Shown here in pieces: positions 57,243 to 61,078 of a DNA stretch of 64,000 bases. Source of the stretch: Escherichia virus TH54. The notes beneath the pieces were generated by a model. That model saw only the letters and a program-made list of their open reading frames with translations. It was not told the origin of the DNA and ran no database searches. Position 1 is the stretch's first letter; each line of letters begins with the position of its first letter. The translations under genes were made by a program, and so were the position numbers. Where the stretch lies: the sequence record MT446420.1. One strand, 5' to 3'.

Positions 57243-58265
57243 TTATTTTTCGAAAGGACGAATTAAATGTTGGTTAGCCTTAAAGCGTTTAACATAGTCT
57301 TCATGACCCAGTGTGTTATACATATTAACCACGTCCTGATAATGTTCCCAGGCATACTCACGGAACCATCCAGAAGTAATGGAGGTGCAGACTTTTTCCA
57401 GCGCAATATGGAAGCTCATGGATGGAGAGATATTGAACTCATTAGGAACCTGCGAACGTTCCAGAGCGAGCACACATGCTTCTTCATAAACCCCTGCCAG
57501 TTTAATAACATCAGGCAGTGCTTCAAATTTTTCACGTGAGGTCATGACTTCTGAATCATCCTTCATATAGAACTTATATGCAGGCTTATCAGCAAGCGCC
57601 ACAGCCTCGTGGATGGAGTCATGGTCAAGGGTATAGATTGTATCATTAAAGAAAGTTTTCTTGCCCACATCTAGTTTAGGGTGACTGTATGACAGTGTTT
57701 CTGCCTGACGCTGCAGCATGATTTTCTGCAGTTCATCATTAAGAACAACACCCTTATTGCGAAGATAATTAATATGACTCATGGTCTTCAGGAAGAATGG
57801 GTTGTTCTTCAGGTAACGATGAGACAATTTAATCGCCAGACAAATATCAGGAGTCGCCCAATAGAAACCTGTAAGACGGTCTTTCTTAATATGATTTTCA
57901 GCGTATTTCAAGAGACGATAACTTGAGGTGAAATCTTCGTCTTGAAGCTCACCAGTAATTTCTCGTACGTTAGTCAGGGCACGGACAATATAAGCTTCAA
58001 AATAGGTTTCTTTGCCATTGTACATACATTTAAAAGCTTGGACATCAGGGTTATCCACAGGAACATGAGCACCGAACATACGTGCTTTAAAGTGGTTCCA
58101 AGAACCCTGGTCAGCGATAAAGTCCCAATCAGAGTTTTCAATTTTCTGACTTTCAATCAGACCAGCGTTATGTAATGCACGAGAACCAATAACTAACATC
58201 ATAATATTTTCCTCAGTAAACTTAAATTTCAGCAACGTAATCGTTATGCAATTCCCACATATCAT
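57243..58265 (-). CDS. hypothetical protein
   Basis: 340 aa, start uncertain. Confidence 0.5.
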   Translation of the reverse strand: MICGNCITITLLKFKFTEENIMMLVIGSRALHNAGLIESQKIENSDWDFIADQGSWNHFKARMFGAHVPVDNPDVQAFKCMYNGKETYFEAYIVRALTNVREITGELQDEDFTSSYRLLKYAENHIKKDRLTGFYWATPDICLAIKLSHRYLKNNPFFLKTMSHINYLRNKGVVLNDELQKIMLQRQAETLSYSHPKLDVGKKTFFNDTIYTLDHDSIHEAVALADKPAYKFYMKDDSEVMTSREKFEALPDVIKLAGVYEEACVLALERSQVPNEFNISPSMSFHIALEKVCTSITSGWFREYAWEHYQDVVNMYNTLGHEDYVKRFKANQHLIRPFEK

Positions 58266-58461
58266 CAGAATTATTCTTAATGATAGGAATTATCTCATTA
58301 GAGATTTCTTCTGCATAAGGGTCATTGATACAGTGAGCATCTTCAAAACGAACACCATAATCAGACTTCTTATAAGAGAAGCCATAAATCTTTTTAAACT
58401 TGGCACGAGTAATGCGTACCGGTTCATTAGACTTATCGGACATCGGAGCGTAATACCACAT
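58222..58461 (-). CDS. hypothetical protein
   Basis: 79 aa. Confidence 0.4.
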   Translation of the reverse strand: MWYYAPMSDKSNEPVRITRAKFKKIYGFSYKKSDYGVRFEDAHCINDPYAEEISNEIIPIIKNNSDDMWELHNDYVAEI

Positions 58462-58573
58462 ATATTCTCCTCATATTGTGTAAAGTAATAGTATCGCAGT
58501 TTTTTGGAGTTGTATACTGCTTCTGCAATATTCTAAAAATAATTTATCCTCCTATCACATCCTTGTGATAATT

Positions 58574-58807
58574 TTAGCAGCTACTCGGATACCAGATTTT
58601 ACCATCGGCACGAGCAACGAAGGTACGACCAGCTTCTTCACCATAACAAGAGCTGTTCAACCAGTCTTCAAGACGGACTTCGCCGTCATAATCATCAAGC
58701 TCAACACCAAAATCTTGAGCAGAAGCCATATCTTTTACTTTCTTATACAGTGCAGCCAGTTCAAGGGCAGCTTTTTCTAATTCAGCATGTTCAACAGCAG
58801 TAGTCAT
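58574..58807 (-). CDS. small paralog, C-terminal WxSSxC family
   Basis: Track ORF trimmed to MTTAVEH after AAGGAAAT; ends WYPSSC. Confidence 0.5.
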   Translation of the reverse strand: MTTAVEHAELEKAALELAALYKKVKDMASAQDFGVELDDYDGEVRLEDWLNSSCYGEEAGRTFVARADGKIWYPSSC

Positions 58808-58817
58808 TTTTATTTCC

Positions 58818-59045
58818 TTAGCAAGACATAGAGGAGTTAAACCAGAAACCTTTACCATCTGGGATACCATAATCACCGCGAATCCAGTCATACTCTTCGT
58901 ATTCTGGACAACCCGCAGGAATATATCGTTGAAGACTGTCAGCATACACATGAAAGTATTCACCAGTTTTATCGGCCAGTTGTTCACCTTCACAGATTAG
59001 TGCACGGATTTGGTCTTCAATTTCTTTAACAGTTTTAGCAGTCAT
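58818..59045 (-). CDS. small paralog, C-terminal WxSSxC family
   Basis: 75 aa; ends FWFNSSMSC. Confidence 0.5.
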   Translation of the reverse strand: MTAKTVKEIEDQIRALICEGEQLADKTGEYFHVYADSLQRYIPAGCPEYEEYDWIRGDYGIPDGKGFWFNSSMSC

Positions 59046-59054
59046 TTTATTTCC

Positions 59055-59252
59055 TTAGCATTCGTAAGAGGAGGACACCCAGGAGCCACCCGTAATTGTA
59101 ATACAGCCATTGTAAATCGTGATATGACGGTCCAGATGGTTTTCACCTTCGATATAGATGTCGGCTTCTTCACGTTCTTCTTTACAAATCTGGATAACGT
59201 TTTCAATAGCTGCCGCGGCAGTACGGATTGCACAATCTAATTCACGAGACAT
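59055..59252 (-). CDS. small paralog, C-terminal WVSSSxEC family
   Basis: 65 aa; ends GGSWVSSSYEC. Confidence 0.5.
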   Translation of the reverse strand: MSRELDCAIRTAAAAIENVIQICKEEREEADIYIEGENHLDRHITIYNGCITITGGSWVSSSYEC

Positions 59253-59261
59253 AATAATTCC

Positions 59262-59543
59262 TTAACATTCAACAGAAGAGGACACCCAACCACCATTTTC
59301 CAGGTCAGTTGTATAGTCATGAGTATTAACAATAGCCCATTCAGGATGACCATGTTCTTCCCAATGAGCAAGGTCGGCTTTCAAGGCGCCAGGAGAATAA
59401 TAGTCACCGCCCATACCGCGAGCAGGGTATATATTAAAATGAGTCTCATATTTGTCTGCAATTTCCTCGGCACGACGAATAGCTTTATGGATATCATTTA
59501 CTGCGGCCAGAAGCTCTGGTTGGTTATGGTTATCATTCATCAT
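59262..59543 (-). CDS. small paralog, C-terminal WVSSSxEC family
   Basis: Track ORF trimmed to MMNDNHNQ; ends GGWVSSSVEC. Confidence 0.5.
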   Translation of the reverse strand: MMNDNHNQPELLAAVNDIHKAIRRAEEIADKYETHFNIYPARGMGGDYYSPGALKADLAHWEEHGHPEWAIVNTHDYTTDLENGGWVSSSVEC

Positions 59544-59544
59544 A

Positions 59545-59835
59545 TTAGCACACCTCAGAAGAGGAAACCCAGGCACCAACAGTAACAATGCCGTTTTCAA
59601 CTTGCCCGCCGTTGTTTTCAATATGGTGGGCGAACCATTCGGAACATTCATAACCGACTGGGTGATATGTACGGCCGGTGCCGTAATCGCCAGTGCTGAA
59701 TTCGATACCATATTCATCTGCGATTTCTTCACAGTGTTTTTCAATTTCAGAGGTCTTATTTAGAAGAGAATAGATAGCTTTTTCTGCAGATTTCTCATCA
59801 TAATACTTGGGGATAGCAATTTCAATTTTATTCAT
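59545..59835 (-). CDS. small paralog, C-terminal WVSSSxEC family
   Basis: 96 aa; ends GAWVSSSEVC. Confidence 0.5.
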   Translation of the reverse strand: MNKIEIAIPKYYDEKSAEKAIYSLLNKTSEIEKHCEEIADEYGIEFSTGDYGTGRTYHPVGYECSEWFAHHIENNGGQVENGIVTVGAWVSSSEVC

Positions 59836-60248
59836 GATTTACATTCCTTAATAAAGGTTTCAAGGTCATTACGTTTTGTTTTGTCTAGAAACTTATTATA
59901 CTCAGCCATTGCCGAAGCATATCTCTTACGACTAGGAGCATTCACGGCGTTTGTGTGACAAATATCATACACAACCGGGATAAAATAAGCCACAATAGCC
60001 GGAGCGATTATCATAAAGAAACCCATCTCAATAGGCATGACTCCCTCGATTGCAGCCATAACCGTGGTCATTACCAGACCAACCAAACCACCAAGCATGG
60101 CGGTGACAATCCCTAATAATAAATTGCCACCAATATCATATTCAGCCAATTGATAAACATGTGAGGCAAGACTAGGCCGTTCCATTACGAACCTCCTTAA
60201 TAAATTCTTCGGCACATTTAATTTTGTGCTCTTCTTGTAGGGAAACAC
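59832..60248 (-). CDS. membrane protein, FIxEC C-terminal family
   Basis: TM helices; C-terminal ETFIKECKS; start uncertain. Confidence 0.45.
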   Translation of the reverse strand: MFPYKKSTKLNVPKNLLRRFVMERPSLASHVYQLAEYDIGGNLLLGIVTAMLGGLVGLVMTTVMAAIEGVMPIEMGFFMIIAPAIVAYFIPVVYDICHTNAVNAPSRKRYASAMAEYNKFLDKTKRNDLETFIKECKS

Positions 60249-60567
60249 ATTTTTGTTCCCACGCTTTAACTCGCCCGCGATAACCTTTATTCATATGATT
60301 TTGATGCCACACGTTTATCAATAACATGCTCAGGACTGTAATAAAAGGTGCTGCAATTACTAGCGTCCAGGCGACTCCAACACTAATGATATTCATATCT
60401 CCACAAAGCACCATCATTATAACCCCAACGATGCACATGGACAGAGCTCCAAATGGAGGCATAAGGTCTTTATCAATCTTGTCTGCGTATACAAATTTTT
60501 CTGGTTTACTTGGCAGATATAACGTTCGCATTTTGAACCTCTTTAGCATATTCACGACATTCAGCAA
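60172..60567 (-). CDS. membrane protein, FIxEC C-terminal family
   Basis: TM helices; C-terminal EEFIKEVRNG; start uncertain. Confidence 0.45.
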   Translation of the reverse strand: MLNVVNMLKRFKMRTLYLPSKPEKFVYADKIDKDLMPPFGALSMCIVGVIMMVLCGDMNIISVGVAWTLVIAAPFITVLSMLLINVWHQNHMNKGYRGRVKAWEQKCVSLQEEHKIKCAEEFIKEVRNGTA

Positions 60568-61078
60568 TAAAACGATTAAGCTTACGTTTCCGTTTACGAC
60601 ATTCTAATGTGTACTCAGCCGCCAAATCAAAAAGCTCATCTTTATCATAATTTTTAATATCAGTATAAGTTGGGCGGCGGTCAACCATTCCAAAGTGGTC
60701 ACCATTTTCCAACATCAAATAACACACCAAATGGTCATCATCGTCCGCATTAATAAGCTGCTTATAATCACTTGGTTCATTTAACGCATACACAGAATAA
60801 CTCAGTCCAGCGAATTCCACTCGTTGAATACCCAGATTTACATCAATAATTTCCAAGGCATCTGCGAAAGAAAGGTCTTCAGCTAAAGCAAAAATAAAAG
60901 GCAATTTGGTAGTATCACCGCGACTTGTTGTTCTTCTTAAGAAATCATTGGAATAGCCCAGGTCACCACGGATTCTATAAAGAACTGTATTAGTTTCAGT
61001 GGCAAGACCGCTACCACCAAACCAGTCTACATTTGATATAAGGTCAGTGTATAAGCTCATAATTTTCTCCTCTCCCAA
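60506..61078 (-). CDS. hypothetical protein with FIAEC C-terminal motif
   Basis: 190 aa soluble N-domain; C-terminal RKRKRKLNRFIAECREYA. Confidence 0.5.
   Translation of the reverse strand: MGEEKIMSLYTDLISNVDWFGGSGLATETNTVLYRIRGDLGYSNDFLRRTTSRGDTTKLPFIFALAEDLSFADALEIIDVNLGIQRVEFAGLSYSVYALNEPSDYKQLINADDDDHLVCYLMLENGDHFGMVDRRPTYTDIKNYDKDELFDLAAEYTLECRKRKRKLNRFIAECREYAKEVQNANVISAK

Follow-up and report, generated by a model that had tools for sequence, protein, structure and literature searches.

In Escherichia virus TH54 (sequence record MT446420.1), five consecutive small genes, designated here A to E, occupy positions 58574-59835 of the 64,000-nt stretch that was analysed (the window), and belong to a widespread phage protein family defined by a Cys-ended tail of the form W-x-S-S-S-x-x-C or W-x-x-S-S-C. 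Across distant lineages of large phages, the genes of this family are strictly linked to a gene lying downstream of them on the same strand, which encodes a protein composed of the domains DUF7277 and DUF7275 (hereafter the enzyme), a putative nucleotidyltransferase. It is tentatively proposed, with more reserve than conviction, that A to E are upstream partners of this enzyme, acting as regulators or pseudo-substrates, and that the tail would be their shared contact or modification site.

Linkage of the small genes to the DUF7277-DUF7275 enzyme

When the neighbours of the array in the window were scanned against Pfam, the only matches were to DUF7275 (E=1.9e-75) and DUF7277 (E=4.8e-26), two genes downstream, the enzyme gene starting ~370 bp after the end of the array (Table 1). 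An earlier note on this DNA, made from the letters alone, had rightly picked out the array but had missed this conserved neighbour. The association can be found far beyond the window. Three metagenomic contigs, reached through distant members of the small family, carry a DUF7277+DUF7275 protein of ~300 aa alongside, and one to three tail-bearing small genes stand beside the enzyme in Pseudomonas phage phiK7A1, phage tuntematon, Aeromonas phage phiAS4 and Stenotrophomonas phage IME-SM1.

Linkage was measured in 80 IMG/VR loci retrieved by alignment of the enzyme alone, whose enzymes range from 98% down to 40% identity to that of the window. At least one match to a hidden Markov model (HMM) of the small family is present in 70 of these 80 loci, and of the 231 open reading frames (ORFs) carrying either the family profile or the tail motif, 228 lie upstream of the enzyme and on its strand, a position occupied by only 20% of all ORFs. 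The number of small genes per locus varies from 0 to 6, the nearest copy ending within ~100 bp of the enzyme start in a third of cases. Clustering of the same-strand ORFs across loci leaves only the enzyme and the small family common to different lineages. Mean column identity of the enzyme is 49% across lineages whose small proteins are ~25% identical, and no part of the module is better conserved than the tail and the enzyme.

Among ~50,700 phage records, 731 contain the enzyme, which is also represented by ~2,000 protein clusters. The form borne by phages of Gram-negative bacteria is essentially phage-specific: among 185,579 genomes it was met in only five contigs of metagenome-assembled genomes, where small genes are present too.

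The main rival explanation is that A to E act on the host independently of the enzyme, as takeover or anti-defence effectors (acidic inhibitors or mimics of nucleic acids) directed each at a different host protein. The enzyme would then be no more than a frequent neighbour in the same mobile cassette, and the tail would mediate self-association, metal binding or a host contact that all five have in common. Small, acidic genes of variable copy number in an early region, and more precisely in the hyperplastic interval between e.3 and e.2, would suit such effectors, as would the combination of diversified bodies with a fixed tail, the occurrence of the enzyme in actinophages without genes of the A-E type, and the spacer with hairpin and promoter-like features that parts array from enzyme in this phage. 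Passive hitch-hiking, however, is not expected to yield a same-strand upstream linkage of 228 out of 231 across phage families that have no other common neighbour. Moreover, no match was obtained to the anti-defence, DNA-mimic or defence-related models searched, and an intramolecular metal site is unlikely because only one Cys is conserved in the family. T4 Dmd and Arn, T7 Ocr and the YefM/Phd antitoxins have neither sequence nor significant structural similarity to A-E, and lack both a conserved tail and a linkage to an enzyme. Independent effectors are thus regarded as possible, though rather unlikely.

Architecture of the array and predicted structure of its products

The earlier note had described five tandem ORFs of 65-96 aa, each with its own Shine-Dalgarno sequence, near-identical Cys-ended tails and acidic, helical N-terminal halves, and this description is borne out. 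Every start is preceded by a Shine-Dalgarno sequence, AAGGAA in A, C, D and E and GAGGTG in B. Stop-to-start gaps along the array are 1, 9, 9 and 10 nt, the TAA stop forms part of the AAGGA of the next gene at three junctions, and the ATG of A overlaps the stop codon of the upstream e.3-like gene (ATGA), so that the whole array looks translationally coupled. The longer versions of B (160 aa, from TTG) and E (139 aa, from GTG) that are called mechanically are upstream extensions overlapping the preceding gene; homologs of both begin at the internal ATGs.

All five proteins are acidic, with pI values of 4.40-4.86 and net charges of -7 to -10, and a helix is predicted in the N-terminal part (residues 9-31 of B, 3-26 of C). 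Paralog B harbors the motifs EEIADKYE..F and GMGGDYYSP that are common to the family, and E represents a double-motif subtype, in which an internal ...DWLNSSC is found in addition to the terminal IWYPSSC with its Trp at position -5. Within the 64 kb, a six-frame scan for the tail pattern retrieves A-E plus one chance ORF of 14 codons and nothing else, and the family HMM matches A-E only.

An AlphaFold2 model of B, built on a 76-sequence alignment, reaches a mean predicted local distance difference test score (pLDDT) of 91.4 and a predicted template modelling score of 0.79. It comprises a helix (9-31), a beta hairpin (35-41 and 44-49, bearing GMGGDYYSP), an inserted helix (51-63) and a strand (84-88, GGWVS), after which the last residues, SSSVEC, fall to a low confidence of ~60, compared with a pLDDT above 90 in the body. 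Since the invariant Trp lies inside the third strand, it would be part of the fold, and the drop in confidence after the last strand suggests that the Ser/Cys tail is probably exposed. Paralog B is therefore confidently predicted to adopt a small alpha/beta fold, from which a flexible tail extends. The model of C is of lower confidence (pLDDT 76) and shows a helix with three strands. Foldseek searches of BFVD with B retrieved nothing but uncharacterised proteins, from T4-like phages and other large phages, and the same search with the C model returned nothing.

Distribution and signature of the small family

Paralogs A, B, D and E are assigned to phrog_899 and C to phrog_4882, both of unknown function. 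A word-indexed search recovered only 33 close clusters. When 1.84 billion representatives were searched exhaustively with a profile, 89 matches were obtained, ~70 of which are proteins of 70-105 aa aligned from end to end, corresponding to about 70 clusters at 50% identity. The consensus consists of a long helix ending in EAExIADExG, followed by xFxF..AYGMGGTYYP, an acidic stretch rich in Trp and Tyr, and G-x-W-x-S-S-S-x-x-C at the extreme C-terminus. With B as tblastn query, the family is found in at least 329 phage records, from phages of Escherichia, Acinetobacter, Klebsiella, Citrobacter, Enterobacter, Yersinia and Serratia, and its carriers include T4-like, rV5-like, jumbo and other large phages.

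Cys is the very last residue in 187 of 195 unique tails, and it is the only conserved Cys of the family. Trp stands at position -7 in 134 tails (W-x-S-S-S-x-x-C) and at -5 in 46 (W-x-x-S-S-C), the latter group including 20 double-motif proteins of the E type (unique sequences from the 80 loci); this subtype also occurs in phages Merlin, phiAS4 and tuntematon. The alignments support the Cys-ended tail as the most strongly constrained element of the small proteins.

Scans of A-E against Pfam, NCBIfam and PADLOC gave no match, and sequence and profile searches of the PDB with the family gave only generic matches to designed helices. Matches to HAMP-repeat histidine or sensor kinases of 800-2500 aa, with values up to E=1e-15, were judged to be spurious compositional or helical artefacts, because only the N-terminal helix (profile positions 5-50) was aligned, and to many repeats. 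Regarding existing annotation, B-type homologs are mislabelled in GenBank as 'tail completion protein' in phages UPEC07, UPEC01, vB_EcoM_005 and 04086, while the enzyme is named 'prohead assembly scaffold protein' in vB_KpnM-VAC36 and 'DefenseFinder protein' in another record. As they have no sequence support, the structural-protein labels look like errors of annotation pipelines.

Selection on the small genes and age of the expansion

All five genes are real and under purifying selection at the protein level. The ratio of non-synonymous to synonymous differences per site (pN/pS), averaged over pairs of related phages, lies between 0.13 and 0.38 (Table 1), and the last ten codons taken alone have values of 0.13-0.45 for pS and 0.03-0.06 for pN, i.e., the tails undergo synonymous and almost no non-synonymous change. 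In eleven related genomes, the order of the subtypes and the reading frames are kept and no frameshift occurs, the single departure being one genome that lacks C.

The paralogs of the window are only 23-27% identical to one another (BLASTP E of ~1e-3 to 1e-4), and for C and E the alignment with the other paralogs is mostly confined to the tail. In contrast, Tequatrovirus JK45 has three copies, of the A, B and C types, each ~54% identical to its ortholog in the window. Types A, B and E are present in Moonvirus Merlin, A and E in Aeromonas phage phiAS4, and B/D-like, E and A types in the non-T4-like Phapecoctavirus tuntematon; subtypes A, B, C and E are already found among Tequatrovirus, Moonvirus, Tulanevirus and Phapecoctavirus. 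It follows that the duplications are older than these lineages, or that the set has been transferred as a unit. Judging from these comparisons, the family expanded long ago, and its expansion was not confined to this phage. The earlier suggestion of a family expanded by tandem duplication and then diversified therefore stands as far as paralogy and divergence are concerned, but has to be amended as to time, since the expansion pre-dates this phage.

A recent local duplication without selection, or ORFs that are not genes, had been put forward in the same note as the case that would undo its claim. Such an origin has nothing in its favor beyond the tandem arrangement, and is refuted by the higher identity of orthologs in another genus than of paralogs within the window, by the order A-B-C-D-E, kept in 9 out of 10 relatives, and the intact frames, by the pN/pS values, by the ~70 clusters at 50% identity and by the confident model of B.

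The position of individual paralogs within the family is not equally firm. Paralog E can be aligned to the family core by hhalign over 50 columns with a probability of 88.8%. For C, only the 11 residues of the tail are aligned to the core (P=3e-6) and its score against phrog_899 is only E=0.055, so that its homology appears secure only through the tail, its place in the array and its similar predicted architecture.

It may also be asked whether the tail is conserved as RNA, the sequence UCCUCU...UGCUAAGGA serving translational coupling or masking the Shine-Dalgarno sequence of the next gene. Within the array, the TAA stops do belong to the AAGGA of the next gene, and the tail Ser codons are nearly always TCC TCT, even though TCC accounts for only 12% of Ser codons in the long ORFs of the window. 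Across the family, however, codons of the TCN and AGY types both occur at the tail Ser, e.g., AGT AGC in E, AGT AGT AGT and TCT TCG AGT in Merlin and TCA TCT AGT in JK45, which indicates that selection acts on the amino acid. Furthermore, terminal genes without a downstream partner have equally conserved tails, pS exceeds pN in the tail, and the RNA folds at the junctions show no extra stability relative to shuffled sequences (z from -1.0 to +1.4). Conservation at the RNA level was accordingly rejected and is considered very improbable. As a separate observation on codon use, the first tail Ser is always TCC in A-D of this phage group and is followed by TCT or TCC, and more distant phages use other codons at this first Ser; the TCC bias may have arisen by gene conversion among the tails, or from a nucleotide preference that acts locally in addition to protein-level selection.

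Nature of the enzyme

Across 23 diverse sequences, the invariant residues of the enzyme include G6, S7, D25, D27 and E69, in the context MMLVIGSRAL...SDWDFI. The resulting pattern, IGSxAL...DxD...E, resembles the hG[GS]...DxD of nucleotidyltransferases of the Pol-beta type, and charged, His and Cys residues are invariant at many positions of the C-terminal domain. Homologs from Actinobacteria and their phages, which belong to the same family (hhalign 99.9%), provide a second line of evidence: 5 of 21 match the Pfam model AbiEii over the GS...DxD segment only, the best with E=3e-5 and 24.5 bits against a curated cut-off of 22.5, which it alone exceeds. One GenBank record names a homolog 'putative nucleotidyltransferase'. 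On account of the motif and of these AbiEii matches, the enzyme is regarded as a probable distant relative of the AbiEii/MenT nucleotidyltransferase superfamily.

The actinobacterial form is shorter (~250-265 aa) and can also be found in bacterial chromosomes. In actinophages, a different and unrelated small gene lies directly upstream of the enzyme (gp15 and gp16 overlap in ClubL), which fits a pattern of variable upstream partners. RNA ligase genes adjoin the enzyme in two loci and a tRNA cluster in one; these cases, anecdotal as they are, are compatible with RNA or tRNA as the substrate.

Resemblances to HD domains, 2H phosphoesterases, kinase catalytic loops and the Rx4-6H motif of HEPN were considered in the enzyme and dismissed, the residues not being invariant or the pattern being wrong, and PADLOC gave only chance-level matches with the enzyme and its homologs. 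In two homologs of 420 aa, the DUF7275 domain is split by an insertion with HNH endonuclease and NUMOD4 similarity, suggestive of a homing-endonuclease-type or intein-like element.

A proposed two-part module and its alternatives

The nearest known systems are AbiE and MenAT (PMC7450476; PMC10435456; PMC11375011). Toxins of the DUF1814 (AbiEii/MenT) type are bi-lobed nucleotidyltransferases that extend tRNA 3' ends, and upstream of their genes lie those of small antitoxins of various kinds (PMC7450476). One such antitoxin, the 68-aa MenA1, induces by its N-terminal helix the auto-phosphorylation of an active-site Thr in MenT1 (PMC11375011). The module described here shares with them an enzyme of ~260-320 aa, presumably two-lobed, with N-terminal hG[GS] and DxD motifs, whose gene immediately follows a small variable partner gene on the same strand; the use of an N-terminal helix by a 68-aa partner and the AbiEii matches of some distant homologs add to the likeness. 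It differs in that the window enzyme is not matched by the AbiEii model and has Pfam DUFs of its own, in that it is borne by large virulent phages instead of a bacterial defence or toxin-antitoxin locus, and in that the partners are a new family with an invariant W..SS..C-COOH tail, without similarity to AbiEi (winged helix-turn-helix, COG5340) or MenA.

By analogy, a mechanism can be sketched. Paralogs A-E would be translated as a coupled early-region operon, each giving an acidic alpha/beta domain in which a long N-terminal helix packs against a three-stranded sheet, with the invariant Trp in the last strand followed by a flexible, hydroxyl-rich tail ending in a free C-terminal Cys. They would take the role of small upstream partner that the MenA1 antitoxin has for MenT toxins, binding the enzyme and controlling or redirecting its action. 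The tail, common to all of them, would extend to the acceptor site of the enzyme, where it could serve as an inhibitor-like pseudo-substrate or plug, or be nucleotidylated or phosphorylated on Ser, while the diversified bodies of the subtypes would provide different affinities, timing or additional targets.

Several observations weigh against this proposal of upstream partners. No known antitoxin system has a comparable set of one to six diversified partners, and searches of Pfam, NCBIfam, PADLOC and the PDB revealed no similarity of A-E to AbiEi or MenA. The enzyme also occurs without them: 6 of 79 scored loci have no small-gene copy, and actinophages and Actinobacteria carry the enzyme without the tail family, so that the small proteins cannot be a substrate on which it strictly depends. 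Array and enzyme are not adjacent in T4-like phages, where 112 nt of spacer and a gene for an unrelated protein of 79 aa lie between them. With regard to the enzyme itself, Pfam AbiEii (PF08843) gave no match at E<=10 to the window protein and 22 close relatives, the window protein has no secondary Pfam match, sequence and profile searches of the PDB gave no match and did not reach the MenT structures, and hhalign comparisons with the aminoglycoside nucleotidyltransferases AadA and KNTase were not significant. Binding, modification and toxicity of the module are to be read as proposals drawn from sequence.

A bolder version holds that the enzyme covalently marks the tail, by Ser-O-nucleotidylation, phosphorylation or a Ser-Cys thioether ring, or that body and tail together mimic the acceptor end of a tRNA and plug the enzyme. 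We consider it doubtful; if true, it would amount to a new protein tag or mimicry system controlling a tRNA-directed enzyme in many large virulent phages of Gram-negative bacteria. Precedents for marking a neighbour can be found in MNT-HEPN and GlnD-PII, where a nucleotidyltransferase of the Pol-beta type stands beside a small protein on which it acts, the acceptor being a Tyr hydroxyl in a conserved exposed motif. The present module is similar in having an enzyme encoded next to a small protein with candidate hydroxyl acceptors in a conserved, probably exposed motif, and dissimilar in that no sequence relationship exists, the motif is a Ser-rich C-terminal tail instead of a Tyr, and modification is hypothetical.

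A further alternative is that the tail is processed in the manner of ribosomally synthesized and post-translationally modified peptides (RiPPs), Ser being converted into dehydroalanine and captured by the terminal Cys in a thioether ring of the lanthionine or aminovinyl-cysteine (AviCys) kind, to give ring-capped proteins. In epidermin-type peptides, it is an S-x-x-C-COOH arrangement that forms AviCys. Paralogs A-D, with Ser at -3, -4 (and -5) from a free C-terminal Cys, conform to S/T-x-x-C, and the occurrence of several putative precursor paralogs upstream of one conserved enzyme recalls multi-precursor RiPP clusters. However, E ends in S-S-C without a spacer, and A-E are folded domains of 65-96 aa in which a variable body is combined with a conserved 'core', the reverse of the usual pattern, in which the leader is conserved and the core varies. 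Dehydratase, cyclase and decarboxylase domains (LanB/C, LanM, LanKC/L, LanD) were sought by Pfam scan in the enzyme and the shared neighbours, and none was found. Ring-capped proteins, although attractive on chemical grounds, are therefore an improbable outcome.

Genomic setting

Over region 58400-60300, identity amounts to 97.5% with Escherichia virus TH57 and to 92-94% with phages VR20, SP18, VR26 and VR7; by sequence, the window is that of a T4-like coliphage of the Gaprivervirus/Dhakavirus group. In the VR7 record, the five array genes are the hypothetical proteins ORF142c-138c, with T4-like e.4/e.3 upstream and e.2/nudE/e downstream. Since T4 itself has e.3 directly next to e.2, the stretch with the array represents an insertion into a variable region. 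The enzyme and the small family are both absent from the T4 bases searched, 1-50000 and 64000-76000. In phiAS4, the enzyme gene adjoins nrdC, and T4 nrdC.3 (308 aa), suspected from this adjacency as the T4 homolog of the enzyme, was rejected. No tRNA gene was found across window positions 1-64000; VR7 has a tRNA-Met ~2.8 kb upstream of the array.

Of the sequences between array and enzyme, the phrog_3723 gene is common to T4-like loci only. In the spacer, the promoter-like site (58558-58530) has 9/12 matches, and a promoter and terminator scan around the array did not rise above shuffle expectation. A terminator is annotated in the Merlin record at the equivalent place, a weak hint that the spacer may end the transcription unit of the array. 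Elements named 'PeSL', in which a stem-loop is combined with an early promoter, have been reported to mediate module shuffling in variable regions of T4-like phages (PMC4122927), and the spacer, with its hairpin and promoter-like match (weak in -35 and -10), resembles them.

The three genes directly upstream of the array have C-terminal segments that are alike, ...ETFIKECKS, ...EEFIKEVRNGTA and ...NRFIAECREYAKEV, and comparable endings (..SFIEECRK, ..FVESCRKS) can be found in related loci. They may form another group of paralogs, likewise marked by a motif conserved at the C-terminus.

Table 1. Features of the window and of two actinophage loci; pN/pS values are pairwise means over related phages.
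Feature	Coordinates	Strand	Details
Paralog A	59545-59835	minus	96 aa; end ...VGAWVSSSEVC; phrog_899 E=1.3e-21; pN/pS 0.27
Paralog B	59262-59543 (ATG at 59543)	minus	93 aa; end ...GGWVSSSVEC; phrog_899 E=1e-18; pN/pS 0.31
Paralog C	59055-59252	minus	65 aa; end ...GGSWVSSSYEC; phrog_4882 E=3.3e-36; pN/pS 0.14
Paralog D	58818-59045	minus	75 aa; end ...GFWFNSSMSC; phrog_899 E=3.5e-15; pN/pS 0.38
Paralog E	58574-58807 (ATG at 58807)	minus	77 aa; end ...KIWYPSSC; phrog_899 E=8.6e-10; pN/pS 0.13
Spacer after the array	58462-58573	minus	112 nt; hairpin ATCACA-AGGA-TGTGAT, then sigma-70-like match GTGATA-17-TAGAAT
Gene between array and enzyme (phrog_3723)	58222-58461	minus	79 aa; lineage-specific; not a family member
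DUF7277-DUF7275 protein (enzyme)	57243-58202	minus	319 aa; start MMLVIGSRAL; Shine-Dalgarno GAGGAA; phrog_2141
e.3-like and e.4-like predicted membrane proteins and a 190-aa protein	59832-60248, 60172-60567, 60506-61078	minus	directly upstream of the array
Short enzyme form, Streptomyces phage Annadreamy	3378-4133 of retrieved locus		RNA ligase two genes upstream
Short enzyme form, Gordonia phage ClubL	3309-4100 of retrieved locus		tRNA cluster ~1.2 kb downstream

Significance

No description of phrog_899, DUF7275, DUF7277 or the tail motif was found in the literature. New here are the tail as the definition of the family, the age and subtypes of the array and, above all, the linkage to the enzyme, the connection with a known kind of system being only partly supported. 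Reading both as one module turns two orphan families, mostly annotated as 'hypothetical', into a testable system, and the W..SSS..C-COOH tail offers a compact signature that can be used for annotation and for the design of mutants. If the enzyme is a tRNA nucleotidyltransferase of the MenT/AbiEii kind, virulent phages would deploy a relative of a bacterial abortive-infection toxin alongside multi-copy control proteins of their own, which would bear on how phages with tRNA sets of their own manipulate or protect translation.

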